Shown here: piece after piece, positions 3,995-24,222 of the stretch | Position numbering within the stretch: position 1 is the first letter of the stretch | Layout: each line of letters opens with the position of its first letter | Assembly (NCBI RefSeq): GCF_037042905.1 | Contig: NC_087245.1 | Location: 7,628,001 to 7,692,000, forward strand | DNA from: Lytechinus pictus | Taxonomy: Eukaryota | DNA: 64,000 bases | Direction: 5' to 3' | Notes under the pieces: model-generated | Database searches by the model: none | Seen by the model: only the letters and a program-made list of their open reading frames with translations | Told to the model about the DNA's origin: nothing | Translations under genes and position numbers: made by a program

Positions 3995-6900
3995 CAATGT
4001 TGCGCCCCTGGTCGAACATGAATTTGCATGGATCCCCTAAGTTCAAGGTCAATTTGGCGCCCTTGGTTGAACATGAATTTGGCGCCATGTAAAATATCAC
4101 TTTGCCCTCCCCCTTCTGAAACATGTATTTGTCGCCTTATGGTCAAACATCAAATTAGCGCTTCCCTAGTTCGAACATCAATTTGGCGCCCCGCTAGTTT
4201 GAACATCAATTCGGCGCTCCCCTAGTTCGAACATCAATTTGGCGCCCCGCCCAGTTCAAACATCAATTTGGTGCCCCCATCTAGTTCGAAAATTAATTCG
4301 CCCCCTCCCCCTTGTTCAAACATCATTTCGGCGCCCCATAGTTCGAACGTCATTTTGGCGCCGCCTAGTTCTAACATCAATTTGGCGCCCCAAGTTCGAA
4401 TAGCAATTCGGCGCCCCCTAGTTCGAACATCAATTTGGCGACCCTAGTTCGAACATTCAATCGGCGTCCCCCTACGTCGAACATCTATTTGGCCTTCCTA
4501 GTTCGAATATCAATTCGGCGCCCCCTAGTTCAAACATCAATGTGGTACCCCTAGTTCGAACATCGATTCGGCGCCCCCCCCTAATTCGAGTATCAATTCG
4601 GCGCCCCTACATGTAGGTCGATCATCAATTGATCATCAATTTGCCCCCCCCCCCCCCCCCGTTCGAACATCATTTTGGCATCCCTTCGAACTGAATTTGG
4701 CTTCCCTAGTACGAAAATCATTTCGCCCCCTAGCTCGAGTATCAATTTGGCGCCCCCCTAATTCAAGTATCAATTCGGCGCCCCTACATGTAGGTCGATC
4801 ATCAATTTGCCCCCCCCCCCCCGTTCGAACGTCAATTCGACCCCCAGTTCGAACATCATTTTGGCATCCCTTCGAACTGAATTTGGCTTCCCTAGTACGA
4901 AAATCATTTCGCCCCCTAGCTCGAGTATCAATTTGGCACCCCCCTAGTTCGAACATCAATTCGGCGCCCCCCTAGTTTGAGTATCAGTTTGGCGCCCCCC
5001 TAGCTCGAACATCGATTCGCCCCCTCCCCCCTAGTTCGAGTATCAATTTGGCGCCCCCAGTTCGAACATCATTTTAACATCCCTTCGAACATCATTTTGG
5101 CGCCCTCCTTGATCGAATATCAATTCGGCGCCCCTACATGTAGGTCCAACATCAATTTGGCGCCCCATAGTTCGAGTATCAATTTGGCGCCCCCTAGTTC
5201 CAACATCAATTCTGAGCCCCCCTAGTTCGAGTATCAATTTGGCGTCCCCCTAGTTCGAACATCGATTCGGCCCCCTCCCCCCTAGTTCGAGTATCAATTT
5301 GGCGCCCCCAGTTCGAACATCATTTTAACATCCCTTCGAACATCATTTCGGCGCCCTTCTAGTTCGAATATCAATTCGGCGCCCCTACATGTAGGTCCAA
5401 CATCAATTTGGCGCCCCATAGTTCGAGTATCAATTTGGCGCCCCCTAATTCCAACATCAATTCTGAGCCCCCCCCCCCTAGTTCGAGTATCAATTTGGCG
5501 TCCCCCTAGTTCGAACATCGATTCGGCCCCCTCCCTAGTTCGAGTATCAATTTGGCGCCCCCAGTTCGAACATCATTTTAACATCCCTTCGAACATCATT
5601 TCGGCGCCCTTCTAGTTCGAATATCAATTCGGCGCCCCCACATGTAGGTCCAACATCAATTTGGCGCCCCTAGTTCGAATATCATTTCGGCCCCCCTAGC
5701 TCGAGTATCAATTTGGCGCCCCCTAGTTCCAACATCAATTCTGAGCCCCCCTAGTTCGAGTATCAATTTGGCGTCCCCCTAGTTCCAACATCGATTCGGC
5801 CCCTCCCCCCTCCCCCTAGTTCGAGTATCAATCTGGTGCCCCCAGTTCGAACATCATTTTGACATTCATTCGAACATCATTTCGGCGCCCTTTTGGTTCG
5901 AACATCATTTTCTTTCCTCCTCTTCCTCTTTTTTTCTTCTCGTCCTTCCCCTCTTTCTCTCCCCTTTATTTCTTTTCTTTCCCCCCTTTCTCTCTCTTTT
6001 TTTTCTCTTCTTTCCTCCCTCTTCGAACATTCAATCGGCGTCCCCCTACGTCGAACATCTATTTGGCCTTCCTAGTTCGAATATCAATTCGGCGCCCCCT
6101 AGTTCAAACATCAATGTGGTACCCCTAGTTCGAACATCGATTCGGCGCCCCCCCTAATTCGAGTATCAATTCGGCGCCCCTACATGTAGGTCGATCATCA
6201 ATTTGCCCCCCCCCCCCGTTCGAACGTCAATTCGACCCCCAGTTCGAACATCATTTTGGCATCCCTTCGAACTGAATTTGGCTTCCCTAGTACGAAAATC
6301 ATTTCGCCCCCTAGCTCGAGTATCAATTTGGCGCCCCCCTAATTCGAGTATCAATTCGGCGCCCCTACATGTAGGTCGATCATCAATTTGCCCCCCCCCC
6401 CCCCCCCGTTCGAACGTCAATTCGACCCCCAGTTCGAACATCATTTTGGCATCCCTTCGAACTGAATTTGGCTTCCCTAGTACGAAAATAATTTCGCCCC
6501 CTAGCTCGAGTATCAATTTGGCGCCCCCCTAGTTCGAACATCAATTCGGCGCCCCCCTAGTTTGAGTATCAGTTTGGCGCCCCCCTAGCTCGAACATCGA
6601 TTCGCCCCCTCCCCCCTAGTTCGAGTATCAATTTGGCGCCCCCAGTTCGAACATCATTTTAACATCCCTTCGAACATCATTTTGGCGCCCTCCTTGATCG
6701 AATATCAATTCGGCGCCCCTACATGTAGGTCCAACATCAATTTGGCGCCCCATAGTTCGAGTATCAATTTGGCGCCCCCTAGTTCCAACATCAATTCTGA
6801 GCCCCCCTAGTTCGAGTATCAATTTGGCGTCCCCCTAGTTCGAACATCGATTCGGCCCCCTCCCCCCTAGTTCGAGTATCAATTTGGCGCCCCCAGTTCG

Positions 6901-7492
6901 AACATCATTTTAACATCCCTTCGAACATCATTTCGGCGCCCTTCTAGTTCGAATATCAATTCGGCGCCCCTACATGTAGGTCCAACATCAATTTGGCGCC
7001 CCATAGTTCGAGTATCAATTTGGCGCCCCCTAATTCCAACATCAATTCTGAGCCCCCCCCCCCTAGTTCGAGTATCAATTTGGCGTCCCCCTAGTTCGAA
7101 CATCGATTCGGCCCCCTCCCTAGTTCGAGTATCAATTTGGCGCCCCCAGTTCGAACATCATTTTAACATCCCTTCGAACATCATTTCGGCGCCCTTCTAG
7201 TTCGAATATCAATTCGGCGCCCCCACATGTAGGTCCAACATCAATTTGGCGCCCCTAGTTCGAATATCATTTCGGCCCCCCTAGCTCGAGTATCAATTTG
7301 GCGCCCCCTAGTTCCAACATCAATTCTGAGCCCCCCTAGTTCGAGTATCAATTTGGCGTCCTCCTAGTTCCAACATCGATTCGGCCCCTCCCCCCTCCCC
7401 CTAGTTCGAGTATCAATCTGGCGCCCCCAGTTCGAACATCATTTTGACATTCATTCGAACATCATTTCGGCGCCCTTTTGGTTCGAACATCA
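3995..7492. repeat. ~30-bp GC-rich satellite (ctagttcgaacatcaatttggcgcccc) with a ~1.58-kb higher-order duplication
   Basis: Monomer repeated throughout; block ~4448-6021 is repeated at ~6022-7607 (identical ORFs offset by 1585 nt). Confidence 0.95.
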
Positions 7493-8404
7493 TTTTCTTT
7501 CCTCCTCTTCCTCTTTTTTTCTTCTCGTCCTTCCCCTCTTTCTCTCCCCTTTATTTCTTTTCTTTCCCCCCTTTCTCTCTCTTTTTTTTCTCTTCTTTCC
7601 TCCCTCTTCCTCTCTCCTTTTTCTCCTTTTCTTTCCCCTCTTCCTCTTTTTTCTTCCCCCTCTCCCCCCTCCCTTTTCTTCTCTTCCTTTCCCCTTTTCT
7701 TCCCCCCTTCTCTCTCTTTTTTCTCTTCTTTCTTCCCTTTTCCTCTCTCTCCTTTTTCTCCTTTTCCTTTCCCCCTCTTCCTCTCTCTTCCCCCCTCTTC
7801 TTTTTTCTTCTTTTCTTTCCCCTCTCTTTTTTCTTCTCTTCTTTCCTCCCTCTTCCTCTCTCTCCCTTTTCTCCTTTTCTTTTCCCCTCTTCCTCTTTTT
7901 TATCCCCCTCTCCTTCCCCCTCCCTTTTCTTCTCTTCCTCTTTTTTCTCCTTTTCTCTCCTCTTTTTCCTCTCTCTCTTTTTCTTCTCTTCCTTTCCCCT
8001 CTTCCCCTCTCTCTCTTTTTTCTCCTTTTCCTTTCCCTCTCTTTTTCCTTCTCTTTCTTTCCCCTTTTCCTCTCCCTTTTCCTTCCCTTCCTTCCCCCTC
8101 TTCTCTTTTTCTTCTTTTTTTCCCCCCTTTCCTCTCTCTTTTTTCTCCTCTTCTTCCTTCCCCCTCTTCCTCTCTCTTTTCCTCTCTTTTTTTCCCCTTT
8201 CTCTCTCTTCTCTTCTTTCCTCCTTCTTCCTCTCTCTTTTTTTTCCTTTTCCTTTCCCCCTCTCCCTCTCTCCTTTCCTCTTTTCTTTCCCCCTTTTTCC
8301 TCTCTTTTTTCTTCCCTTCTTCCCCCTCTTCCTTTCTTCTTTTTCTTCTTTTCTTTCCCCTCTTCCCCCTTTTTTTCTCTTTCTTTCCCTCTCTTCTTTT
8401 TTTT
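7493..8404. repeat. Polypyrimidine/polypurine low-complexity tract
   Basis: About 910 nt almost entirely C/T on the plus strand. Confidence 0.97.
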
Positions 8405-8462
8405 AGCCGAAGGGGGGGGGGCCAAGGCCCCCTCGGCCCCCCCCCCCATGGATCCGCGCCTG

Positions 8463-8768
8463 GCACCACGAACCGCGTTTGGCAGTGGATTTCTAACTAG
8501 TGCCTTAGTGGGTCGCGCGTGCTGGGATCTCACTTCTTGGGTCCACAACACACGACTTCTATGGCTTGAATTTTCTTTGCGCGGCGGCATGTAATGAACC
8601 CTTGGGTGGCCATTGAGTTCCTGTACAGATCACCCAAGGGTTCATTACATGCCGCCGCGCACAGAAAAATCAAGCCATAGAAGTCGTGTGTTGTGGACCC
8701 AAGAAGTGAGATCTCAGCACGCGCGACCCACTAGTTAGAAATCCACTGCCAAACGCGGTTCGTGGTGC
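8463..8768. repeat. Long inverted repeat (~140-bp arms, 22-bp spacer)
   Basis: gcaccacgaaccgcgtttgg...aacccttgggtg / cacccaagggtt...ccaaacgcggttcgtggtgc; the right arm recurs at ~25023-25192. Confidence 0.9.
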
Positions 8769-8954
8769 GAGGTTAGTATACTAATACTAACCTCGCAATA
8801 CGTGTGAGTGCTCAATGGCCATATGTTTATGTATTAAGTTTGGAAAGAATCTAAACCAAGCCTCCAACTTAGGAAGTGAGAGTTGCGTGACAGCCAGCCG
8901 AAGTAAGTCAGTAGTCACTGTTGTTTTTTTTCCTTTTGACCAAAAAAATCTCAT

Positions 8955-9030: not shown

Positions 9031-9848
9031 ATAGACTAATACACATAAGCACTATTTCCCATAGACTTTACACATAGCAAATTGAGAGGATCTCAAATCC
9101 AATTTTGCAAGTGAAATACGGGCATGATCTGATTTTCTGATTGGAAAATGAAGACCACACTAGCGATAGCTTACAATCTCAGCTACAACATACTCCAAGC
9201 TCAGAGAAAACTGACAAAAAGAAATGGAGATATGGCTCGCGAAATAGAAGAATGTAAAATCCAGTTTTGAGAAAAAGTCATTTCCCATAGAGATTGCACA
9301 CAAAATGAGCGAAAATGACATGCCTCTATAATTTGCCATTTTTCAGGATGATTCATTCCTTTAAAAGAAAATATAGCAATCAAATTAAAAAGAGTACGTC
9401 CTCAGCTACAATATATTGAAAACTGAGCGAAAATTGGCCAATATTTGAGGAGTTAGTGTCAAATTTGCATAACTATGATGACGTCATAGGTAGCAAAGTG
9501 GTAATTTTGAGTTTCGACGCCACTTTGATGACGTCATGATAAAATTAAGGGTCAAATGTGACATGAAATCATATCTCCCATTTATACACTATTGGAATAT
9601 GAAAAAAAAATCGGGGGTCAATGGACTACCTGGAGAGCTATGATGAGTTTTGTATAGGCATGTTTTTGCACATATATTGTCTATGGTTAGTGCGCGCGCG
9701 CGTGCGTGCTGTAAACTTTGATGGAGGCTAATTCCTTTATTACTTGTCGTAGAAGGTTGATCAAGGTATTAAATTACTCAGAATTATATAATCAATGCAT
9801 TGATATTAAAAAAATGCCGATACAATGTTGTATAGTGCCGTTTGACAG

Positions 9849-10274
9849 TGTTGTTCGAGTGCTCAGTTCGAACAATCTTAAAAGTGGAAATGTACTGCAC
9901 AAAAGACGAAATACATGCATCACATATATTCAGTCAAAAGTATATTGACTCACCGTAAGTTCTGTCCCACGATGAATCCAGTAGAACAACTGAACTGGTA
10001 GAAAACAGCAATATAACTCAGCAATAACAACAGTATAACTTCTCAATAGGTTGGTTCCAGTACATCTCTCAGCAGTATCCAAAGATGGCGATGCCGTCCG
10101 CATCCTCTATCACGGGGTGTCGAATCCCTGCTTCTGATTGGTCACCTCTGGTGAAGTTGCACGCGGCACTACATCTTGGCTTGCCATGAGGTCTCCAGCA
10201 GCAGACGACGATGGTAGCAGACGACAAGGATCAGTAGCTGAAAACGCCAAATCGGCCTGGCCGTTTTCACTACA
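9849..10274 (-). repeat. 3' LTR of the Gypsy element
   Basis: tgttgttcgagtgc...ttttcactaca; matches 21618-22043 with no differences found by eye. Confidence 0.97.
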
Positions 10275-10295
10275 CTGCTCCCTTCCCAATTTTTT
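10275..10295 (-). other. Polypurine tract
   Basis: Minus strand AAAAAATTGGGAAGGGAGCAG directly before the 3' LTR start TGTAGTG. Confidence 0.85.
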
Positions 10296-12272
10296 GAGGA
10301 TCGATACGGGGATCTCTGAAGAAGCACTCAAACTCTGGATGAGCAAGACCGTTGGAACCCGAAAGAAAGTGCCTCGGCCATGGCTACACCCATGAGGAAT
10401 GCCAACAACCCCTATCTGAACCTAGCCAAAACACAACAATCAGTAGTTCTGTTAACCACCTTCGGAAACTGCTCACTCGGCACCCCCGCTTGGACATTGG
10501 GTCCTCACTAGAGCTTCCGCAGAGCACAGGGTATCCATGACTCAACGGGATAAGAGCAAGGCTCCATTATCTAGACCGGAGTCATAGGCGAACCAAACCT
10601 AGTATTCACTTCCCATAAACTTCCTAAGGGCTGCAAATTATGCCATGCCAGCCCACTGGGTAAACCACTAACCCAGTGCTTGGATACAAATCCTACTCAC
10701 TCTAACTCTTCGACAACATCCTGAACTATCTAGAGCAAGAATCTGAGCTATGCAAAACGCACTACATCCGACGGCAATAAGTCGCGAACATCCACCTGTA
10801 TAAAATATACAACAGGGACGGCGCTCGTGTTCCAGATATTCTCGAAGAATTATCCCAGAAGAGGAGAATTCTCCATCTTCATGGCAAGTAATTACTGGCA
10901 AGTGGAACCGTAAGTTCCAGGCTTACACACTTCATTCTAGCATGATCGGACACAATCCGAGACTAGTCACTAAAAGAAACTCTTTCCATAGAGAAGCCCA
11001 GCCTACAACAAGCTCAGAGCAATGCTATTGACAATCCAGTACTGCACCACCAAAGCAGGGTTATCAGCATGTGGCAACTGCAATGCTCGGAGATCATTAT
11101 GGAAAATTCTGAGTATCCATCTCGCCCTGGAAAGAACATCCTTTGTAAACCCATCTCGAACATGTTCATGGTACGGCTGCACAATCCAGCTGCCGACCAT
11201 ACCTCAAGAAGTATTCTCCTTAACTGTCGTGGCGTTGGCAAAGAAGAATTCTTCTTGCCAGCCACTGCCACAGTAAGAGAAGACGGAAGCGAAACATGAA
11301 ATATAACACCCGGTGCCTCAGGGTATATACTTAAATCACTTCACGATCATCCACTTCTGACACAGTATCTAGTGAGGGCATATAGCTACTTAAAGCCAGC
11401 ACAGCTCAAAAACTAGAACACTACGTTATCCAGGTCAGCTAACACAGCTAACATCTGAATAGCACACAGAAGGATGCATCTCATCTTATAAGCACACCAT
11501 CAGGAAACATTATAAGCTTCATGCAAGCTACTCAGCATCACACCATAAGTCAGGCAAGAACATTCTCCCTACCCTACTCCTTGGAATGCCAGTCCTAAAG
11601 GCGAGCGAGGATAAGTTCTCTGCCCCTTCCTTAGTGGACTACTTGGCTCCACATTGAACACAGGATGGAAATGGGTTCCTTGCCTCACCCATTGGTGTTG
11701 CGAGGCTGGCACTACTAGACGACCGAAGGAATATCTCCAGTAATCTTTAACATGTTTCACATGATGGCATACCATTCAGTTACAGAGCGGGACATGAGGA
11801 ATAATAGGGAAATACATAGCTAACACAGCTGACAACACAGTAACATATATCTCAGAGTCCTAAAATCTGCCATGGACCAAGATACTCCGTTTGCCTAATT
11901 TCCATTTACCTTATCCTCACTACCCGTTCCGCTCTCCCACAACTACCAGTCCTGGAGAGAGGTGACGGACACAGGCCCAGTCAATTCTCCCCAGTAACCT
12001 TGCGGGTGGTCACTTACCTTGTCCTCTCGCAGGCGGTTGATTGTTGGGTCTGACTCAGGAGGCGAGGATTGTAGCTGGGTCCCAACTTCCTCCATCCCCA
12101 GTGAAGATAGTCCCTGAGCTATTACTTCCGCACTGTGAGCCTGGCCCAATACCTCATAATCTTCCAGAAGGAAAAACCTATCCGTCGATTTGAGGACATC
12201 CGCCTGTAGCTGACAAAACCCAGACCTTCTAGCTCTGAAATGCAAAGCAGAAGTCAAACACACCGAAGAGAG

Positions 12273-12524
12273 CATCTTTTGGTCGATGGTGCCTGTGATG
12301 CGTTTCAGCACATTTGCCGAAAGGGTGGTTATGAGCGACATCTTCTGGTCAATAACGCCAGTGATCCGCTTCAGCAAGTTGGCCGAAACCGTGGTCACAG
12401 TCATCCTCTGACCAATGATACCTGTGACATGTCTTAGCATATTTGCCCAAACGATGGTCACACTTTCCTTCTGATCGATCAATCCTGTGATCCGTTTCAG
12501 CACGCTTGCCTGAACGGTAGTCAC
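12273..12524 (-). repeat. Four tandem 60-66-bp units homologous to pol segment 16219-16275
   Basis: Units translate VTTVQASVLKRITGLIDQKES / VTIVWANMLRHVTGIIGQRMT / VTTVSANLLKRITGVIDQKMSL / ITTLSANVLKRITGTIDQKM; pol reads TTIPPNTLKRVTGVIDQRM. Confidence 0.85.
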
Positions 12525-12616
12525 AATTTCCTTCTGTCTTATCTCCCAGACCCCATAAATAATATACCAAGACCCACATGTCCATTAGAGGTTCTTGAGA
12601 AAAGGAGTGGATTTCC

Positions 12617-14608
12617 CTAGGTCCTAGATGCGCATCCCGGACAATGGTACTCTTCATCCAACCCCAGCATCTCGCCTTCCTCTTCGGACATTCCCACGCA
12701 CTGACCGTGGAACCATTCTTCGCATTTATCACACTGGATCATAAATTTTCCTCCCCAGGGCTTCCTGCAAAGGCAATACACCTCCTCGTGCCTGTGCTTC
12801 TTCCCTTTCTTATTCGGAGGAATAGTCCGATCTCTGCATGGTTTCATGCGGTCATGGTTCACCGTCATCCTAACATTCTTATACTCGACCCGGTACAGGA
12901 ATGGAGACAGTCTCTCCACAATCAATGCAGGACCTTTCCAGGGAGGGCAAAGTTTCTTGCACTTCCCTTTGGATTGAGCAGTGTCCAACAAGTATACTCG
13001 TTCACCTACCTCATACTTCCTCTGGAACACTTTCATGTCATAGTCCTTTTTCTGTCTTTTTTGGGTCTCTTTTAGATGAGACCTGGCCAGCGAGTGTACA
13101 TCGGCTAATGTCTTACGCAGATTCGCACAGTACTCCTCGCTTTCTACTGGTTGTGCTGCTTGCGGCATCGGGAACAGTAAGTCCACCGGTTGGGTCACTT
13201 CCCTTCCAAGCATTAGCCGGTTGGGAGTAAATCCGGTGCTTCTATTCACTGTTGATCGTATGGCTCCTGCGATTTGAGGAACAAACTCGTCCCAACTTCG
13301 CTGGTTCTTGCCTACGAAACAACGCACTGCATCCATCAGCGTCCGGTTAAATCGCTCCACCTGACCATTGGCCGAAGGACGATAAGCCGTTGTTCTCGCC
13401 TTATGTATTTGCAACATCTTACACATGCTTGTAAACAAACGACTCTCGAAATTACGGCCTTGGTCGGTGAAGACCTGCAGGGGACACCCGAAACGGCTGA
13501 AGAAATGGTCCACCGCTGCTCGGGCTGTCACTTCTGCGGTCTGTGAAGGCAAAGGTATGCACTCCACCCATTTCGTGAATTGATCAACCATTACCAGGAT
13601 ATTCTCGTTCCCATTCGCCGTTTTTGGCAGGGGACCCAAGAAATCCAAGTGCACCCTTTCCATGGGGTAGCCAGCATGATAGCTGATCATAGGGTTCCTC
13701 CCGTGTCTGGCAGACTTCTTGCATTGGTTACAGGTTGGACATTTGCGGATAAAGTCACTCACATCCTTCCCCATACCATACCAGAAGAACCGCCTCTTCA
13801 TCTTGGAGATCACCCTTACATTGCCAGCATGCCCTGCCAAGGGCAAATCATGGTTAAGTCTAACCAATTCTTCCCTCATAGAGTGAGGAATGAGAAGTAA
13901 ATCCCCTTCGCCCTTGTTCTGGTAAATTACCCCATTTTCCAGGTGAAATGTATCCTTGTTGATCCACAGGTTCTTCTGCTCGGGACTCCATAACATCATA
14001 GTTCCCTCGCTAGGTTCTTCACCTGTGGCCAACCATTCCCGTAATGGAAGAAATTCTGGATCTTTGTCTTGTTCTTCTTTCAATCTCACGGCTGGGGGTG
14101 TTTCTGGCTCCTCGACCACCTGGGAGATATTCAGTTCCTCTGTGATCGGTCTGGAGCTCTCAACTACCTCGTCCGACCGTAAATCCGATCTCACGGCCGG
14201 GGGTGTTTCTGGCTCTTCGACCGCCTGGGAGATATTCTGTTCCTCGGCGATCAGCCTTGAGCTCTCAACTACCTCTTCCGACCGTAGATCAGGGTCCGAT
14301 TTCACCACCATGTGGGTTGTCCAAAACCCTGACTCAAGGTTTTGGCCAATGGTGTTTTTCCGTTCTCCTTTGACTGATGCCAAGGGAACTACGTCATCCA
14401 CCTCTTCTACAAAAGGAGCCCAGTTCCGGTGAGCCTTCTCACAGTAGGGGCACCCACCACAAGGAAGATCTTCTAACTTGAATCCTAGCCGGAATTCCTC
14501 GCAGAAAAGCTCAGTGTCAGGAACTCGAGACAATGCGTACTCCGCATTCCCATGCTGTTTCCCCGGGCGGTGTATCACCTTCATCTGATACTGACTTAGT
14601 TCTTCCAA
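12617..14608 (-). CDS. pol: Pol 3' part: end of RNase H, integrase (HHCC, DDE, WKGP motif) and C-terminal PHD finger; separated from the 5' part by a 1-nt frameshift
   Basis: HDLPLAGHAG...CPTC zinc-binding motif; VHLDFLGP, FTDQGRNFES and NGQVERFNRTL catalytic core; C-terminal C4HC3 pattern YCLC..MIQCDKCEEWFHGQC..CPGC. Confidence 0.96.
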   Translation of the reverse strand: MEELSQYQMKVIHRPGKQHGNAEYALSRVPDTELFCEEFRLGFKLEDLPCGGCPYCEKAHRNWAPFVEEVDDVVPLASVKGERKNTIGQNLESGFWTTHMVVKSDPDLRSEEVVESSRLIAEEQNISQAVEEPETPPAVRSDLRSDEVVESSRPITEELNISQVVEEPETPPAVRLKEEQDKDPEFLPLREWLATGEEPSEGTMMLWSPEQKNLWINKDTFHLENGVIYQNKGEGDLLLIPHSMREELVRLNHDLPLAGHAGNVRVISKMKRRFFWYGMGKDVSDFIRKCPTCNQCKKSARHGRNPMISYHAGYPMERVHLDFLGPLPKTANGNENILVMVDQFTKWVECIPLPSQTAEVTARAAVDHFFSRFGCPLQVFTDQGRNFESRLFTSMCKMLQIHKARTTAYRPSANGQVERFNRTLMDAVRCFVGKNQRSWDEFVPQIAGAIRSTVNRSTGFTPNRLMLGREVTQPVDLLFPMPQAAQPVESEEYCANLRKTLADVHSLARSHLKETQKRQKKDYDMKVFQRKYEVGERVYLLDTAQSKGKCKKLCPPWKGPALIVERLSPFLYRVEYKNVRMTVNHDRMKPCRDRTIPPNKKGKKHRHEEVYCLCRKPWGGKFMIQCDKCEEWFHGQCVGMSEEEGEMLGLDEEYHCPGCASRT

Positions 14609-16854
14609 CCATCGGCTATTTGCCCTTGAGGATGTTTGAAGTTCATCAGCCAGATGAGACTACTGTGATCTGTGCGCACCAAAAACGAGTTACCTAAAAG
14701 GTAGTGGCGGTACTGCCGTGTGAACTTCACCACTGCTAGGAGTTCTCTCCTTGTCACACAGTACCTTCTCTGTTCGGGAGACAGTGATATGCTTCCGTAG
14801 GCCACTACTCTCTCTTGTCCATCCTGAACCTGGAGTAACTCCGCACCGATAGCCTCATTCGAAGCATCGGTGTCCAGGATGAATGGATCCTGCAAGTTGG
14901 GCATGGTCAACACTGGGGCTGAGGTAAGCAGCTCCTTTATAGAGTCAAACGCCTCCTGTTGTTCAGGTCCCCAGCAGAACATGTTTTTCCCAGTGATCTT
15001 GTACAGAGGAACAGCCGCCGCTGCATAATTCTTGATGAAGGTCCTGTGATAGTTCACTAACCCCAAGAATCTCTCCACTTGTTTCGTGTTGCGCGGCGCT
15101 GGCCAATTCCTCACTGCTTCAATCTGATCTGGTTTCAGAGAGATCTTGTTTTCTCCTACATTCCGGCCCAGGAACTCTACCTCGCGCCGGAACAATTCAC
15201 ACTTCTTTGGTTTCAGCTTCAACTTGAAGCTTCTAAACCTTTGTAAGACCTCCTTCAAGTTATTCATGTGATCCTCAAAAGACTTTCCCAGAACTACTAC
15301 ATCATCGAGGAATGCTAGGACTATGTCCCAATTCAAACCTCTTAAGATTAAGTCCATGGCTCGTGAGAAAGTCGCGGGAGCGTTGCACAATCCAAAACCC
15401 ATCCTCACAAATTCGTACAATCCGTACTTTGTGGTGAAAGCAGTCTTCTTGCGATCCTCTTCCGCTATTTGGACTTGCCAATACGCAGAGTTCGCATCCA
15501 GCTTGGAAAACCAACGCGTCCCGGAAAGGGTATCCAGACACTCCTCGATATTCGGGAGGGGATACACATCTTTCTGAGTGATCTGATTTAGTCCTCGGTA
15601 ATCTACACACCAGCGGACTCCCCCATCTCTCTTCCGTACCAGTACAGGTGCAGACGCCCACTCCGATTGTGAAGGCTGAATAACCCCAGCCTCCTTCATT
15701 CGTTTCAGCACTGCCTTTTCTTCTTCTGCGAAACGCATCGGCGTTCTTCGCATCTTGTGCTTTACTGGGGCTGACGTACCTGTCTCTATCTTGTGCTCAA
15801 TAGCTGTAAATTCTCCTAAGTCGAAGTCGTGACGGGCAAACGCGTCTCCGAACTCCCCCAGGATACGCCTAAGTTCAGCTTCCTGTTCAGAGTTCAAGAG
15901 TTCCGAAGATCGGTCATACAAATCCTGTAAATGTTCTGGCACCTCTTCCGCCACGTCCTCTGTTAAGCAGTTGACTTTAGGTTCCAGCTCTTGAGGCGCC
16001 GAATGTGACCTGGTTTCCTCATCTCTTTCTGGAAGAGAAGATGGCACCTGAGCCACAGCCACTGCCTCGAAGACCCGGCCTATTATCTTGTTGCCCTCCA
16101 GATGGACTACTCTGTCGGTTGGGTTCAAAACATACAGTTGAATGAGCGTACCTCCGTCATGTAGCGACCTAGGTGCTAGAGCGGGTAATACGGATGATGG
16201 CTCAAAAACACAAGCGTTCATCCTCTGGTCTATTACCCCGGTGACACGCTTCAGTGTGTTGGGTGGGATGGTGGTCCGGTGTGAGGTGCTAACTCTGGCT
16301 ACTCGTCCACCATTCCGACCAACTCCGAACTTCATGGGTATCCGTTCATCCCCCATAAGCAGCTCCTTACTACTTATAAGGATATCGATTGAATGCTGCT
16401 CAAGAAAATCTAGACCCAACAGCATGTCATCCGCTATCGATGCTGTGTAAATGTTACCGGGAAAACACTTTCTTCCAATTCCTACCTCCACTGGGCCGAT
16501 CACTGCTCCTTGCAAGCGTGTATCTCGGCCAGCGGTGCTTAAAACAACTTCCTTCACCAGGGGCGGGGCAGGGTCAAGTAGTTTCATCACTCGATCCGAG
16601 ATAATGGTCACTTCTGCAGCAGAATCTACCACTGCGTCAAGTGTAACGCCATTCACCTTTACCTCTACTCTCAGCATCGAGGACGAACGAAGTTGACAGA
16701 CCACTACCTCCTGCGGAGATTCCAACTCCGGTTCTTCCCATTGGGTAGGGAGGACGTTGCTCTCTTCTTCACCAGCTGATAATTCTACCTCTGAGGAATG
16801 CGGATCCTCGTCTTCCAGTTCCAGTTGGTTTACATATTCCGCTAACACCTTCAT
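14596..16854 (-). CDS. pol: Pol 5' part: aspartic protease, reverse transcriptase, RNase H
   Basis: AVVDSAAEVT protease motif; RWCVDYRGLN, FSKLDANSAYWQV, MGFGLCNAPATF and AFLDDVVV RT motifs; LDTDAS and RRELLAVV RNase H motifs; lies in the -1 frame relative to gag. Confidence 0.97.
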   Translation of the reverse strand: MKVLAEYVNQLELEDEDPHSSEVELSAGEEESNVLPTQWEEPELESPQEVVVCQLRSSSMLRVEVKVNGVTLDAVVDSAAEVTIISDRVMKLLDPAPPLVKEVVLSTAGRDTRLQGAVIGPVEVGIGRKCFPGNIYTASIADDMLLGLDFLEQHSIDILISSKELLMGDERIPMKFGVGRNGGRVARVSTSHRTTIPPNTLKRVTGVIDQRMNACVFEPSSVLPALAPRSLHDGGTLIQLYVLNPTDRVVHLEGNKIIGRVFEAVAVAQVPSSLPERDEETRSHSAPQELEPKVNCLTEDVAEEVPEHLQDLYDRSSELLNSEQEAELRRILGEFGDAFARHDFDLGEFTAIEHKIETGTSAPVKHKMRRTPMRFAEEEKAVLKRMKEAGVIQPSQSEWASAPVLVRKRDGGVRWCVDYRGLNQITQKDVYPLPNIEECLDTLSGTRWFSKLDANSAYWQVQIAEEDRKKTAFTTKYGLYEFVRMGFGLCNAPATFSRAMDLILRGLNWDIVLAFLDDVVVLGKSFEDHMNNLKEVLQRFRSFKLKLKPKKCELFRREVEFLGRNVGENKISLKPDQIEAVRNWPAPRNTKQVERFLGLVNYHRTFIKNYAAAAVPLYKITGKNMFCWGPEQQEAFDSIKELLTSAPVLTMPNLQDPFILDTDASNEAIGAELLQVQDGQERVVAYGSISLSPEQRRYCVTRRELLAVVKFTRQYRHYLLGNSFLVRTDHSSLIWLMNFKHPQGQIADGWKN

Positions 16855-16907
16855 AAACTCTGGAAGACCGGCTACACCTTCCTCAGGTTTGTCTGTAGTT
16901 GGGTGAC

Positions 16908-19115
16908 CTATTGTTGCTCGAGCCAGGGTGTGGCCTCCCTCTCCTCCTCTGACTCGCTCGAGTTTGACGCCTCCTCTTCCCTGAGGACCGAAGCGGAAGC
17001 CACGGGGCTTTTATCGGGACAATCTCTCCTAAAATGTCCCGGCTTACCACACTTGAAACAGCCCTCAGTCCTGGGTGCAGGGGATGGCGATCTCCCTCGT
17101 CTTCCTATTTGTGACATTCTTCTATTAAGATTATCCATGGAGGACTGCAGTTTCTCGAACTTCTCATCCCAATCGGAAACCCTCTCCTCTAAAGCCCGCG
17201 TGCGATTATCCAACGCTGACACCAACTTGGTCAAGCTTTCACCCTCTGAAGATATCTTACTCGAAGTGCCAGGCACTGAGCTGTTCTTCTCCAGCCGGGG
17301 TTTATTAGCTGGCGGGGGGGCACCAATCTGTTGGATCACTGCCTCTTCAGATGACCAAGCATCTTGTGGCCAATGGACTATCTTGACCTCTGGTCTCCTC
17401 TGCCTGCCATACACAACCTTTTTCGAATGTATATACCAAGTCACATGATCCACAGCCTTCTCAACTGAGTCCGGCCGTAAGTTCAGGGCGTGCAAACCAG
17501 CTTCCCGTTCAGAACACCCCTGACAAAACTTCAATACCCCTTGTCTCTGTACTTGAGACTCCGGAACCCCTGGGAAAGTTTTAACAGCCAGGCTGACCAC
17601 ACGGTCAGCCCACTCCATGATTCCTTCCTCAGCCAGCTGGTGCGCCCGCATGAACTCCATTTGAGCTACCTCTAGAGGATCATCCGCGCCAAACCGGCGC
17701 TCCATCCTCCTCACCAGATCTTCAAAAGACATGTCTCTGTCACGCGACATCAGTAATGAGAAATAGTCACTTCCAATACCTTTCATGCACCACCACATCT
17801 GATATTTCCTTTGAATGGAGGACCAGCCCTGCTCATCCGCATAGGCCATGAACTTGAGGTAAAACCCTCTCCAGCTCCCTCGACCATCATAGTTAATGGT
17901 CTTGGGGAGCGAACCCATGTGACTCAATGACTGTGAACCCATTTGCCTGGAGCGGCCAGTAGTCTTGTGTGTAGAGATATTCCCCGAAGACTGGCTAGTG
18001 GTGGGGCTCTGGGGTAGCTGATGTGTTGCGGCCTGGTGCGACTGGAACGCCCTTGACTGTGGTGGTGCCGGCTGGCAAGCTGTTGTTTGGACTTGCATCT
18101 GATTAGTCTGTGCATGTCGAGATGATGGGACTTGTGATACCGGCGTTGTTGTCATCTGATAGGATCCAACCGCTGCCGGTTGCACTGGCGGTGCCGCCTG
18201 CGGCTGCGGCAGTGGAGCCGCTGGTATCTGTGGCGGCGCCTGTGGCGGTACCTGTGACGTTGCGGGCGCCTGTGCGCACCTCAGCGGTACACGCGTATAC
18301 CATACAGTAGGCATGCGCGGCACTGGGGCCGCTGTTACTCTTGGCGGAGGGCCAGCCGATAACTGCGGCGGTGGACCCACTGGGTCTACAAGAGGTTGGG
18401 TCGTCGCACTTTGTGGTGATTCTGTCGCTAACAGCTGGGCCGGTGGAACCAATGGGGCTCGTGGTGTTGCCGGCACTGTGGGTGGGCCAGATAGCCGCCT
18501 GACTGAAACATCATACTCCGACAAGTTGGGACCTGGTCTGGTCTGATGTAAGATCTGATGGGGTTCTTGGCCCCCAGTGCCTGGTTGTGAAGTTGGAGCT
18601 TGCACCCTTTCCAGCTGGGCTGGGCGTAAGACCTGCTGTGAGGGATTAACTTGCAACCCCTCCTGTAAAACTCTACCACCAAAGCCTGGGTGGGACTCTG
18701 ACTGCCACCACCTCTCGGATACTCCTGGAGGGGGCGGATACCTCTGCCACCGATAAAATGCTGGGCTAACCTCCTGCACCGGGCTGGGTGCATGGGAATA
18801 CTGAAACAACTCTCCATCCGCTCCTATAGGTTCACCCATGATACCTCTATCATGATCCAGCAACCCTTGTGCAAGCCCATTAGACTGTTGTGATGCCGTA
18901 CTAAAGGGCGTGAAGTCAAGCTGATCCAAAACCTCTTCCGGCAATGAAACCAATGACGAGAAATAATCCCTTGTGATACCACCTTTACGTTCCAACAGCA
19001 AGCCTGCCACAGCATGACTTACTCCTGGAATGCCCACGAGTTCGTCATATGAACACTCGTTCACCGGAAGTGGGCCTTCAATAACCTCAAAAGGGCTTAC
19101 TATATCTGACAACAT
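16908..19115 (-). CDS. gag: Gag, 735 aa: N-terminal HhH-like motif, Pro/Gln-rich linker, capsid-like domain, coiled coil, CCHC zinc knuckle
   Basis: Intact ORF; CFKCGKPGHFRRDC knuckle; YDGRGSWRGFYLKF...QGWS gag core motif. Confidence 0.93.
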   Translation of the reverse strand: MLSDIVSPFEVIEGPLPVNECSYDELVGIPGVSHAVAGLLLERKGGITRDYFSSLVSLPEEVLDQLDFTPFSTASQQSNGLAQGLLDHDRGIMGEPIGADGELFQYSHAPSPVQEVSPAFYRWQRYPPPPGVSERWWQSESHPGFGGRVLQEGLQVNPSQQVLRPAQLERVQAPTSQPGTGGQEPHQILHQTRPGPNLSEYDVSVRRLSGPPTVPATPRAPLVPPAQLLATESPQSATTQPLVDPVGPPPQLSAGPPPRVTAAPVPRMPTVWYTRVPLRCAQAPATSQVPPQAPPQIPAAPLPQPQAAPPVQPAAVGSYQMTTTPVSQVPSSRHAQTNQMQVQTTACQPAPPQSRAFQSHQAATHQLPQSPTTSQSSGNISTHKTTGRSRQMGSQSLSHMGSLPKTINYDGRGSWRGFYLKFMAYADEQGWSSIQRKYQMWWCMKGIGSDYFSLLMSRDRDMSFEDLVRRMERRFGADDPLEVAQMEFMRAHQLAEEGIMEWADRVVSLAVKTFPGVPESQVQRQGVLKFCQGCSEREAGLHALNLRPDSVEKAVDHVTWYIHSKKVVYGRQRRPEVKIVHWPQDAWSSEEAVIQQIGAPPPANKPRLEKNSSVPGTSSKISSEGESLTKLVSALDNRTRALEERVSDWDEKFEKLQSSMDNLNRRMSQIGRRGRSPSPAPRTEGCFKCGKPGHFRRDCPDKSPVASASVLREEEASNSSESEEEREATPWLEQQ

Positions 19116-19424
19116 GATGTATCAATTAAAAATAACAACTTTCCAAAACACAAAATTACCTTAAAACCCAATTGGGTAACACCCCACTCCCCGTCAAACA
19201 AAAAGGCGAACCACCGGGGTAAGAAAAAACCCTAAAGACAAAAATCAGCACCTGCAAAGAAAAATATACCAACGCTTAGTCGGCCTAAAATAACAAGTAC
19301 CAACTCTTCGGTGGTCTAAGAAAAAAAACGAAGTCCAAACACAGCAATGTCACCACCTAAGGTAAAAGTACACCCGCAAGCGCACGAACACTCCAAAATT
19401 CCCAAAATATATAACAAGTAGCCC

Positions 19425-20175
19425 GGGAAAGGCGTCCGTTTAATAGCAGGAACAAAACAAAAAACCGGGCCCTAAATGCAGGAAAAACTAATCTGAAAAG
19501 GGTATCCCTTTAATTTCCCCCAGCACCGGAATTAATTTCTCAATGAAGAAAAATAATCCAAAAAGGCGTCCCTTGAATCCTCAGAAAACACAAAAAGTGA
19601 CCCCAAAATGTAACAAAAATTAATCAAGGAAAGATGCCCCTTTAATCCTGAAAGAACACAAGAATTAATCTCTAAATCCAGAAAAAATAATCCAGGAAAG
19701 GTGTCCCTTTAAGCTTAGAAAACCCAGAATTAATCGCTAAATGCATAAAAAATAATTCAGGAAAGGTGTCCCTTTAAGTTTAAAAAACACAAGGATTAAT
19801 TTCTAAATGTAGAAAAAATAATTCAGGAAAGGTGTCCCTTTAAGTTTAGAAGACCCCCGAACTAATATCTAGATGTAGAAAAAACAATTCGAGAAAGGTG
19901 TCCCTTTAACTTCAGAAGACCCCCGAATTAATATCTAGATGTAGAAAAAACAATTCGAGAAAGGTGTCCCTTTAACTTCAGAAGACCCCCGAATTAATAT
20001 CTAGATGTAGAAAAAACAATTCGAGAAAGGTGTCCCTTTAACTTCAGAAGACCCCCGAATTAATATCTAGATGTAGAAAAAACAATTCGAGAAAGGTGTC
20101 CCTTTAACTTCAGAAGACCGACGAATTGATTTTTAAATGTAGAAAAAATAATTCTAAAAGGGTACTCCTTTAATT
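19425..20175. repeat. Tandem array, ~65-66-bp unit, about 11 copies, in the Gypsy 5' leader
   Basis: gagaaaggtgtccctttaacttcagaagac recurs at 19891, 19957, 20023 and 20089; more diverged copies lie to the left. Confidence 0.9.
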
Positions 20176-20384
20176 CAAACACCAAAGTCAAATGCTAGAT
20201 TCTGAAGAAGAATTCAAGATCACGTAAAGGACCCTAGCCCGGTAAGCTAGGAAAGTGTGCATCAAAAGTCCAAGTCAAGAAGGTAACAGAACCTTGTAGC
20301 TCTAATTGTAGTCCAAATGTAAACACACCAGAAAAATAAATACTAACACCTATCCTTAGTCTAAAAGAATATAACAACAACAGG

Positions 20385-20835
20385 GGGACTAAGACGGGAG
20401 ACTTATCCCTTTAATCCAAAATTAATCCTTATAACAGTCACAAATAATCCGAAAATAACTAGACTAAACGGGGAGACTTATCCCTTTAATCTAGAAATAT
20501 TTTTGGAAAGAACCAAAAAATATTGTATACAGCTAAACTCAACAGGGAGACTTATCCCTTTAATCTAGAAATATTTTTGTAAAGAGCCAAAAAATATTTT
20601 ATACAGTTAAACTGAACAGGGGGACTTATCCCTTTAATCTAGAAATATTTTTGCAAGAAGCTGAAAAATATTTTATCACAGCTAAACTAAAGAGGGAGAC
20701 TTATCCCTTTAATCCAGAAATATTTTTGTAAAGAGCCAAAAAATATTGTATACAGCTAGACCAAACAGGGAGACTTATCCCTTTAATCTAGAAATATTTT
20801 TGTAAAAAGCTGAAAAATATTTTATCACAGCTAAG
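20385..20835. repeat. Tandem array, ~74-75-bp unit, about 6 copies, in the Gypsy 5' leader
   Basis: gacttatccctttaat at 20400, 20475, 20549, 20623, 20698 and 20772. Confidence 0.9.
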
Positions 20836-21601
20836 TAACGCCAATTTTTTAGAAATAAATTAGACGAATGAGACTGAGCGTAAAGTCTACCCCTGTTCGT
20901 ACAAACAAAACGTTAAATCAAATATAAAATAAATCAAAAACTAGCCTAGAATCTGTACTGTAGCACAGCCCAACCAGGAACTGCAACTACACCGTCACTC
21001 TGACAGATCGATGCAGGCGCCAGACACACTCTCACTGCTAGATCTATGCAAACGCTATCGGTTCGACGACAGGCACACTCTCACTGTTCGGGTCGGTCAA
21101 AACGAAACGATATTGCTAGACGCCCTAGGTCACAACGAAACGATATTGCTAGACGCCTTAAACGATACCCACACTCTACACGGCAGATCGTAAGCTCCGT
21201 GCCCAATGTGACCGCCGCGATACCAAAACGATATCCAACGTCAACGGAAAATCCCCAAAACGCACGTGGAGAAATATTCACCTCGAGATGGTTGCGAGGG
21301 AGCGCGATAGATAATTGAACAACTTGAGCAAGTTCAATCACCACTCGAAAAGTTTGCAAATCACTAAAACGTGAATCTAAATAACACACAACACAAGCTC
21401 AGCACCCTGCAAAATATCACAAGCTCAGCCCTGGAAAGTTGACAGTCCCACTGTCACCCTCTCCCCCGCCAACGCAAGCAAATTTCACCCCGCACTGACA
21501 CCTGTGCGATAGACACAATAAATCACTGCTGACCGCCACCGAGCAAGCAGCGGGCAGCTATAGGCCTAGCAGTCACCACGACTCCGCAAACGCGATTCGC
21601 A

Positions 21602-21616
21602 CTGCTGACTACGCCA
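21602..21616 (-). other. Primer binding site, tRNA-Ser type
   Basis: Minus strand TGGCGTAGTCAGCAG starts 1 nt after the 5' LTR; plus strand ctgctgactacgcca matches the 3' end of eukaryotic tRNA-Ser (..CTGCYGACTACG-CCA). Confidence 0.85.
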
Positions 21617-21617
21617 A

Positions 21618-22043
21618 TGTTGTTCGAGTGCTCAGTTCGAACAATCTTAAAAGTGGAAATGTACTGCACAAAAGACGAAATACATGCATCACATATATTC
21701 AGTCAAAAGTATATTGACTCACCGTAAGTTCTGTCCCACGATGAATCCAGTAGAACAACTGAACTGGTAGAAAACAGCAATATAACTCAGCAATAACAAC
21801 AGTATAACTTCTCAATAGGTTGGTTCCAGTACATCTCTCAGCAGTATCCAAAGATGGCGATGCCGTCCGCATCCTCTATCACGGGGTGTCGAATCCCTGC
21901 TTCTGATTGGTCACCTCTGGTGAAGTTGCACGCGGCACTACATCTTGGCTTGCCATGAGGTCTCCAGCAGCAGACGACGATGGTAGCAGACGACAAGGAT
22001 CAGTAGCTGAAAACGCCAAATCGGCCTGGCCGTTTTCACTACA
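21618..22043 (-). repeat. 5' LTR of the Gypsy element
   Basis: Direct repeat of 9849-10274; minus strand contains a CCAAT box (gaccaatcag) and a GCCATCTT YY1-like motif. Confidence 0.97.
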
Positions 22044-22603
22044 ACAGATTGACAGATCACCAGATCACCTAATAAATAAATAAAAAAGAAAATTCGTACG
22101 AAATTAATAGTTGATCTGTCGATTGACAGATCACCTAATAATAAATAAATAAAAAAGAAAATTCGTACGAAATTAATAGTTGATCTGTCGATTGACAGAT
22201 CACCTAATGATGTAATTTTAATTGTAATAATTACTGAGACAATAATATTAATGAGATATCAATAATAATCATTATAATAATAATACTTATAATTAAAATA
22301 TAATTGTAGAAATAATTATAATTATAGTAATTATAATTATAGGCCTTATAATTATTGAGACAATAATAACTATTATAACAATAATAATAATAATTATAAA
22401 ATAATTATAATGATAACAATTATAATGAAAGTAATTGTAATTGTAATAATTACTGAGACAGTAATATTGATAAGTCATCAATAATGATTATTATTATAAA
22501 AATTGTTACAATTATTATTATAAATATAATCATAATTATAATTGAGGGCCTTATAATTATTGAGACAATAATAATTATCATTTCAATAATAATTATTATG
22601 AAA

Positions 22604-24222
22604 CAGGGTTGTAATAAAAAACGTTTTTCATTAAAAAAAACAAATAAAACGTTTTAAATCGTTTTTAAACGTTTTTTTTCCAACGAATGATGCAATTTTC
22701 CGTAAATCAATTAAACTATACAGTCTGATTTAAGCTCTTGATGTTTTAAATACATTTTTGGAGTAAGTAAAGAGAAGACTACAATTTTTGTCACTGAATT
22801 TCCAACAGAAAAGTTAATATTTCCCCCCAAAATTACTAAATCATGAAAATTGAATGCCAAAAAAACCCCCACTAAGATTGCTATTTTATAAGTTTATTCC
22901 TCATACATGTACATATACATGTAGTCCCGGGGCATTTTGAGCCTTGTCAATCAAGGGGAGGGGGGGGGGCGAGAAGAAATTGCACAGTGGACGAAAATGA
23001 CATACTGCAATCTATTGGGTTTCAAAGCTTAATTTCATTAAATCAAGAAATGCTTTATTTCATTTGAATCAATTATGCCAATTTTAGTTAAATCTAGCCC
23101 TTGAACTGCTTATTTTTTCATTGAGGAATTGAGATCAAATGCATATAAGAAAAAAAATTAGTATAAAAAGTTTTTTTTACTTTTTTTCTTCTTTTTTTTA
23201 ACAGAAATTATTGGCAATAATTTTAATTTTAAAAAAGTACAAATAATGATATAATAAATCACGTTTTTGAGCAATTTGCGGTCTGAGGTGCACTTGTTGT
23301 GTAATATCATAAATGCATACTTATGCATGCATCCCAAAATAGTCTTTTGTTGAATGATATGACGTGACTGTCATGTTTATAGATTTATCTTATAAATTTT
23401 TGAGGGGGCCATTAAGGTCCCCTGGGATTGTTATGGTTAAGGTTTGCTAGCTGATTATCTATACAGTTTAAAGTACTTTTCTTCATCTTTGCCAAGCGCA
23501 AAGTTTCACCTGCTTTCATGTGTACCTTAAGAGTACGATGTCAGTTTTACAGTCTATTAATTTTCGCCTTCCCGCACAAAGGCCGTAAGCGCGCTTTGCG
23601 CTTGCGCGTCGCCTTCCCACACAAAGGTCGTTAGTGCACACTGCATGTCGCCTTCCTGCAGAAAGGCTGTTAGCGTGCAGTTAACAGTGCGCGCTAACGG
23701 CCTTCGTGTAGGAAGGCGATGCGCAGTCGCACTAATGGCCCTTATGCAGGAAGGCGGTGGTTTCTAAAATATCATTATGCTTGTGCAACACTTCCATTTC
23801 ATTCAAGTTTGTATTTGAGCTTATTTTAAGTAGTGTTTCTTTCCCTGTCCAAAAAGTGAGCACAACACTCAGATATTTTTGTTGAAATGAGAATATTCTT
23901 AATATGGATTGATGTACATAATTGAACAGGTAGGAAAGGAACATGACAAAGCAATGGAGAAGGGGAGAATAAAGGGGGGAAGAGAAAGAGGAGAAAGAGT
24001 GGTGTTGAGAAAGAGTTTTATTTAGTTAGAATAAAATAGTACACCACTTCAGAAAAAAAAGTATGAAAAAAAACATTCATCTAAAATCACATCCATGCAA
24101 ATTTATAACACACAAGTCTATGCGGTGTTTTAAAACACGTTTTTTTTGTAAAACAAACGGGTGTTTTAAAATGCGTTTTAAAACATGTTTTAAAACACAC
24201 CGTTTAAAACGTGCCAACCCTG
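22604..24222. mobile_element. Non-autonomous hAT-type transposon
   Basis: TIR CAGGGTTG...CAACCCTG with 8-bp TSD TTATGAAA; inserted in an (AAT)-rich low-complexity tract. Confidence 0.88.

Follow-up and report, generated by a model that had tools for sequence, protein, structure and literature searches.

Non-autonomous LTR elements are usually thought to keep cis-acting signals only, and sometimes Gag. In wheat, the non-autonomous Gypsy element RLG_Quinta, which has RLG_Cereba as its helper, is described as encoding Gag together with a domain whose function is not known, with no reverse transcriptase (RT) or integrase (PMC11302176). RLG_Sabrina_SA, WHAM and non-autonomous Angela, also from wheat, are reported to carry an intact Gag or Gag-Pro under purifying selection (PMC9744471), and semi-autonomous elements are likewise described for Athila (PMC2410132). 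A dUTPase located between protease (PR) and RT is on record for rotifer, planarian and fungal Gypsy elements (PMC5408684, PMC6431247), and a 74-aa dUTPase-related protein of BIV was reported to be inactive yet needed for replication (PMC4261571). Ty1 p22 is presented as a self-encoded, Gag-derived, inhibitory restriction factor (PMC4599808).

The window, that is, the whole 64,000-nucleotide stretch of Lytechinus pictus DNA that was analysed, contains an array of repeats derived from a Pol segment, and the closest known systems are the semi-autonomous Quinta, Sabrina and Athila partners. We are highly confident that a Gypsy element (A) has a non-autonomous sister family (B) from which the array stems, and that the window copy arose recently by A/B recombination. 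This copy is a 12.2-kb Ty3/Gypsy LTR retrotransposon on the minus strand (22043-9849), as reflected by direct LTRs with TG...CA ends, a target-site duplication (TSD), a primer-binding site (PBS), a polypurine tract (PPT) and a domain order of gag followed by PR-RT-RNase H-integrase. Its features in window coordinates are:

22044-22047 and 9845-9848: target-site duplication, 4 bp
21618..22043, minus strand: 5' LTR, 426 bp, TG...CA, same sequence as the 3' LTR
21602..21616, minus strand: primer-binding site, common to the non-autonomous copies
16908..19121, minus strand: gag frame of helper (A) type, 737 codons, with CCHC knuckle
14596..17010, minus strand: first pol frame, with protease, predicted dUTPase-fold domain, RT and RNase H
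16219..16275, minus strand: the repeated motif in its native, single form, at residues 138-156 of the model, made up of short strand, turn and long strand
16048..16311, minus strand: PR-RT linker, a predicted dUTPase-fold domain (pseudo-dUTPase) with no recognisable catalytic motifs
12617..14659, minus strand: second pol frame, integrase with C-terminal PHD finger
12533..12536, minus strand: recombination junction, helper-type to non-autonomous-type sequence at a 4-nt microhomology
12273..12536, minus strand: array, the last four units and the tail of the fifth, from the 6-7-unit array of the non-autonomous family; 21-22-aa motif per unit
12528-12536, minus strand: tail of the fifth unit
12465-12527, 12402-12464, 12339-12401 and 12273-12335, minus strand: the four array units, start spacing 63, 63 and 66
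11943..12335, minus strand: last unit, diverged second predicted dUTPase-fold domain and spacer, up to the stop codon
11593..12536, minus strand: stretch peculiar to the non-autonomous family, closest to the copy at G000:C3:63.84 Mb
10275..11592, minus strand: 3' untranslated region ending in the polypurine tract, common to helper and non-autonomous copies
9849..10274, minus strand: 3' LTR, 426 bp

The pol gene of the window copy is divided into two frames, with the break near 14.6 kb, and its spacer between RNase H and integrase contains an in-frame 105-bp duplication (14083-14290). The C-terminal PHD finger of the integrase (12620-12790; PF00628, E 1e-8) is a possible chromatin-targeting module. 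The 2.5-kb 5' leader carries a 66-bp tandem array of about 10 copies (19529-20177) and a 74-bp array of about five copies (20459-20834), which have a short core in common; similar arrays were present in A and B copies. Additional pol or gag fragments were not found in the 3' and 5' untranslated regions of the element. Elsewhere in the window, a near-perfect, MITE-like inverted repeat (8459-8772; 103-nt arms of 97% identity, a 22-nt loop and one more pair of arms), a minisatellite with higher-order structure in which a 28-bp unit recurs about 118 times (4164-7385), followed by a CT-rich 0.9-kb tract (7493-8396), and a foldback of about 170 bp made of three short direct repeats and an inverted copy (23564-23731) were observed.

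As described in the initial annotation, four tandem units and the tail of a fifth lie behind pol (12273-12536, minus strand) and resemble the PR-RT linker, which they match around 16219-16276 at 72% (blastn E 2e-6). All units are contained in one open frame, with 11943-12584 being free of stops, and no ATG precedes the array, as was also seen before; the first Met, codon 49, falls inside it. The last unit is extended into a 114-aa paralogue of the entire PR-RT linker (38% identity, E 4e-16). Across six native motifs and seven units, the motif core N-x-x-K-R-x-x-G-x-x-D-Q was found to be nearly invariant.

Differences between the units had been thought to fall mostly at third codon positions. 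Pairwise counts at positions 1/2/3 were 22/29/51, by which the third position accounts for half of the differences only (51/102), and the minimum numbers of changes were 8/10/17 in the window's four units (p 0.15); in the oldest related copy, with its seven units, they were 12/11/24 (p 0.035). The codon model, however, rejected neutrality for both sets, with omega at 0.26 (p 0.001) in the window units and at 0.25 (p 5e-7) in the seven, upholding the earlier view that the array is no neutral minisatellite. Outside the part of the units that forms an RNA hairpin (see below), pS was 0.86 and pN 0.12. Constraint on the protein was visible among units (omega about 0.25). Between young copies, changes in the array region were non-synonymous only, as expected from neutral mutation after insertion. 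We consider it very probable that the motif was kept at the protein level while it was amplified in B. An atlas search gave no lead for the array (best 0.76) and returned unnamed clusters for the linker domain. The idea that the units form amphipathic helices was dropped, none being significant (lowest p 0.08).

Genome searches and fetched stretches, from which copy counts are lower bounds, revealed at least nine copies with internal sequence, namely three helper, four non-autonomous and two recombinant ones, plus one fragment on C10. Helper (type A) copies were located on C17, C7 and, as an older copy, at C5:48.05 Mb; they comprise gag and pol, and none of the three contains the array. Their pol has 1463 codons in C17 and C7, where the place of the array is taken by a third ORF with a TatD domain (PF01026, E 6e-30). 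In C17, this ORF (L048:3206-7006, G000:C17) has 1267 codons and ends in the TatD DNase domain. Non-autonomous (type B) copies were found on C16, at C3:63.8 Mb, at C5:22.6 Mb and, as an older copy, at C3:76.05 Mb. In these, gag is followed by a pseudo-pol of about 700 codons without RT core, RNase H or integrase, which opens with a protease whose catalytic Asp is missing and continues with the linker domain and the beginning of RT; then come another protease tail, 6-7 in-frame units and a diverged second domain. The frame is full in one B copy, stops 13 codons early in another, is cut by an insertion in the third and is split in the protease in the old one. Two B copies carry insertions of about 2.3 kb (L043:4364-6655) and about 3.2 kb (L045:2495-5679).

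In the window copy, A-type gag-pol is joined to B sequence at the 4-nt microhomology at 12533-12536, and its B part differs from the copy at C3:63.8 Mb at 3 positions in 937 nt. Two further mosaics were detected. The recombinant on C8 has A-type gag and protease joined in frame to the 3' ORF of B, and the 5' end of gag in the old A copy (L051, G000:C5:48.05 Mb), of which only the 5' LTR was found, matches young B at 96% and young A at 74%. Directly beyond the 3' LTR of the C8 copy lies a gag-pol frame of an unrelated Gypsy element (L041:6959-9499). The lack of an ATG before the window array follows from the decapitation of the ORF by recombination, and since all that the window copy has of B's ORF is its headless end, the array is carried along there as a passenger. 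The initial annotation had proposed a selected accessory peptide; this holds insofar as the array is coding, under selection and built from repeats of a Pol segment, but it is not accessory to the window element, in which it is a recombination remnant, and helper copies have a different ORF at this place. The locus shows that an unusual accessory ORF seen in one copy alone can be left over from recombination.

All eight copies with both LTRs were flanked by 4-bp TSDs and showed 0-3 differences within the LTR pair, and all four B copies as well as both recombinants had TSDs of their own and near-identical LTRs. Between copies, the LTRs differed at 2-11 positions for young A versus young B, at 11-12 for old A versus old B and at 59-72 for old versus young. 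The LTRs, thus, sort by age and not by internal type, whereas the coding regions sort by type, with a dS of 0.71 between the pol of A and the pseudo-pol of B. The same pattern is on record for Angela, Sabrina and Quinta of wheat (PMC9744471, PMC11302176) and for non-autonomous pararetroviruses (PMC5491270). The PBS was identical in the young copies and had one difference in the old B copy. B keeps an open gag and has the PBS, PPT and LTR termini in common with the helper, with the LTR body being conserved, as is characteristic of a semi-autonomous element. We infer that the RNAs of A and B undergo joint reverse transcription and recombination, with template switching in shared particles as the cause. 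From the recombinants and the common LTRs, B would be cross-mobilised by the helper. It is not abundant, given four copies and two recombinants versus three helper copies.

The reading frame of B showed signs of maintenance. The eight gaps that separate A from B all add up to whole codons (51, 3, 8+19, 3, 3, 3 and 3), and in a neutral simulation, a frame of 452 codons stayed open in 46/2000 runs at 0.1 and in 0/2000 runs at 0.2 changes per site. Comparison of old with young copies of the B pseudo-pol revealed a pN/pS of 0.51 (p 0.003) over 636 codons; values for B gag (0.30) and helper A pol (0.21) were lower, selection on the B ORF being weaker. No region of the pseudo-pol was significant alone (array 0.33, p 0.08), and in branch tests, in which outgroups were saturated, omega of the B protease and domains was not separable from 1. 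The gag/pol overlap and the hairpin downstream of it are retained in B, which suggests that a Gag-pseudo-Pol fusion is made. Matching RNA reads were very few, amounting to 10, 5 and 8 in three runs, and sense-oriented RNA over the B-specific stretch, at a depth below 1, occurred in one run only.

For the linker domain, an AlphaFold2 model based on 120 sequences reached a pLDDT of 94.5. Residues 127-213 of the model aligned with human dUTPase 24ok (Z 8.9, rmsd 3.0, 86 aligned) and with 3h6x (Z 8.9, rmsd 2.7, 85 aligned); further structural neighbours were many dUTPases and their herpesvirus derivatives, which are dUTPase-fold proteins without an enzyme role. Such herpesvirus proteins have host-binding roles. 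According to the model, the linker has the beta-fold of dUTPases, and the repeated unit corresponds to the domain's first, short strand, a turn and a long strand. Sequence searches with the linker domain gave no match in PDB, Pfam or a 90% protein set; none of eight members had a Pfam match for the domain, Foldseek returned protease matches only, and a deep profile retrieved one dUTPase at E 0.46. The 88-aa linker is, thus, recognised by its fold alone. Trimeric dUTPases have catalytic motifs that include an aspartate hairpin (motif III) and a C-terminal arm (motif V). Neither was recognisable in the linker, as judged by eye from sequence and aligned ranges, and the GVIDQ of the repeat sits in the N-terminal strand and not in motif III. 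A single-sequence fold of the array with the second domain had a pLDDT of 41, and a prediction in which three pseudo-dUTPase domains were combined with the array of four units, the alignment being unused, had a score of 0.00, which speaks neither for nor against binding.

A profile search of 1.84 billion representative proteins, with the profile weighted to the window motif type, yielded 142 hits. The window motif type was present in 12 representatives, four of which (P0005, P0009, P0028 and P0059) have at least two copies, separated by unrelated spacers and in ORFs without RT; a relative of P0009 has four motif copies where P0009 has three. In P0107 and P0140, the motif is retained while the remainder of the domain is missing. 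With a profile of the other motif type, 136 proteins were matched, and none of these (0/136) had two copies. At the key position, 21% of 120 rows have G versus 68% with C, and most of the wider family has a different sequence in place of the motif core. These database proteins are known without DNA context, by which an LTR-bounded setting is not visible, and for P0009, a DNA context was not found in metagenome contigs.

In the same genome, 16 further places with protease and motif in frames of 227-316 codons were found, plus two relatives with longer frames. One of the former (L056, G000:C15:24.43 Mb) has an intact protease motif and the same motif, followed by a stop. In comparison with one copy of a longer relative, its pN/pS rose from 0.07 in the protease to 0.2 within the motif and 0.55 behind it, where all eight gaps lie. 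The motif, thus, marks the end of the conserved frame in a second RT-less family of this genome. Several copies of this family have a TatD remnant close behind. Among linker hits in frames of at least 1100 codons, 16/19, paired by hand, were followed on their own strand by a TatD hit, at most about 7 kb downstream, by which TatD looks like clade-wide cargo of these Gypsy elements. A TatD-carrying Gypsy clade was not described in the literature as searched by title and start of abstract, with Repbase, subscription journals and supplements outside the scope.

As an explanation of the array, we propose that the conserved gag/pol overlap lets B produce a Gag-pseudo-Pol fusion, and that the repeated motif would serve in it as a multivalent short linear handle for the partner of the native motif, which may be helper Pol, Gag or a host cofactor. 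The array would then raise B's share of helper RT and integrase in mixed particles, and the RNA hairpins of the units may add a cis-acting binding array. That the array is a multivalent handle with which a parasite competes for the enzymes of its helper is, on the sequence evidence, somewhat short of an even chance. More doubtful is a wider form of the proposal, according to which, in this TatD-carrying Gypsy clade, one 15-residue stretch of the pseudo-dUTPase would be the signal that docks Pol into particles, which parasites would have kept, excised and multiplied more than once as an avidity device, with the hairpin overlaid on each unit in this family. In B, one element retains a selected, rebuilt pol, and several lineages converge on one short Pol motif; this convergence would act as a natural deletion scan, pointing out which surface of the dUTPase-fold domain is functional. 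If the proposal is true, LTR retrotransposons would be engaged in a protein-level arms race with their own parasites, and a function would be indicated for the dead dUTPase domain. The small peptide and the small RNA are directly testable.

The first rival concerns RNA. With moderate support, most units are predicted to share an RNA hairpin that is missing from the native motifs. Units 2-6, and partly unit 7, fold into one hairpin over the first 41 nt, in which 10-13 of 14 pairs are kept in the window units, compared with 5-8 in native motifs. The consensus energy was -8.7, with -2.7 as the best value in 500 synonymous redraws that preserved the peptide, by which the hairpin is not a mere consequence of the peptide. 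It is unlikely, although conceivable, that the array is mainly RNA, with hairpins that bind Gag or Pol in cis and confer an edge in packaging or reverse transcription, the peptide being kept secondarily. In accordance with this, the array outfolded permutations of synonymous codons (four units, z -2.4, 4/200; seven units, z -3.2, 0/100), synonymous divergence was roughly halved in the hairpin part (0.46 vs 0.86 outside), a null of descent alone from a well-folded unit seldom folded alike (energy P <=0.018; paired fraction 0.024-0.30) and changes in the stem were mostly wobble-compatible. Under the same permutation null, however, one of nine helper-pol windows folded as well (z -3.2), and covariation was weak, with two pairs showing two-sided change and a score reached by 45/500 shuffles. 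The tool's own fold of 14 rows kept six pairs, and stem and non-stem third positions did not differ significantly (p 0.16). The hairpin was absent from 7/7 native motifs tested, with no separate copy in helper or B sequence, and no Rfam match at E <=1 was obtained for 9800-22100. In the third of the unit that stays unpaired, conservation is at the protein level (ratio 0.14), so that the hairpin does not account for the entire signal.

The array might also be a decoy that soaks up a host factor recognising the Pol motif and so protects helper and parasite alike, in a kind of mutualism. The motif is specific to a clade, as seen from the key position in the 120 rows, and was multiplied as free peptide with variable spacers, and herpesvirus dUTPase-fold proteins without an enzyme role are among the structural neighbours of the linker. 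A motif under attack should diversify, however, while the core is nearly invariant across families, and we regard this reading as quite unlikely.

It is improbable that the pseudo-Pol is a dominant-negative regulator which, like Ty1 p22, poisons helper particles and limits copy number. The dead protease and partial RT in an open frame would suit such a role, as would the small size of the family, with nine copies having internal sequence. Poisoning would, however, cost B most, because it depends on the helper and has transposed recently (0-3 differences within LTR pairs), and other families keep an intact protease motif ahead of the repeats. Assignment to the restriction factor class of the Ty1 p22 type was rejected, the array being Pol-derived and absent from 3/3 helper-type copies.

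No better a chance is given to a by-product of slippage, in which RT would have expanded a hairpin-prone unit within a dispensable ORF, with frame and rough composition being kept. Selection on the whole ORF is weak, no region being significant alone, and further tandem arrays occur in the element's 5' leader and pol. Omega of 0.25 among the units conflicts with this, as does the multiplication or terminal retention of the motif in other families. Finally, a cassette of pol fragments captured from related elements, acting as small-RNA decoy or recombination donor as the initial annotation had alternatively suggested, is highly improbable: unit 1 matches other families at 39 and 38 of 57 nt and A at 37/57, and a 57-column tree forces no single clade, but one clade was not rejected (p-AU 0.3), the units share derived states, 6/7 match another unit best and the A/B linker over the four other families tested, the native motif is identical in young helper-type copies, with no cassette switching seen, and the 5' arms of the hairpin, ranking 29th-246th among 948 sites, show no preferential pairing with the helper motif.

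The preferred reading, a multivalent handle of a semi-autonomous parasite, was compared with known systems. The motif array itself was not described in the literature as searched by title and start of abstract, with Repbase, subscription journals and supplements outside the scope. Grass non-autonomous pararetroviruses, in the part of the account available, are like B in having distinct coding sequence while regulatory sequence is homogenised by recombination, but they are viruses and have no motif array (PMC5491270). Ty1 p22, as far as the accessible account goes, is likewise a piece of a protein encoded by the element itself, with a possible trans effect on particles, whereas the array is derived from Pol and carried by a mobile, dependent family (PMC4599808). 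In the rotifer, planarian and fungal Gypsy elements, fold and position of the dUTPase are like those of the linker, and the available parts of the two reports do not describe duplication or strand amplification (PMC5408684, PMC6431247). The BIV protein and the linker are, on the available description, alike in fold and position, the BIV protein being short and without activity (PMC4261571). The LTRs of Sabrina, WHAM, Angela and Athila are reported to co-evolve with helpers or to switch between them, as in B, and tandem amplification of a Pol motif is not mentioned in the available portions of these papers (PMC9744471, PMC2410132). Quinta, according to the available part of its description, is like B in being derived from its helper, in having PBS and LTR ends in common with it and in recombining through template switching; it differs in its thousands of copies in a plant, compared with nine copies of the B system in an animal host, and in an extra domain without known origin, whereas that of B is a rearranged pol made up of a dead protease, a duplicated domain of predicted dUTPase fold and a 6-7-fold array (PMC11302176).
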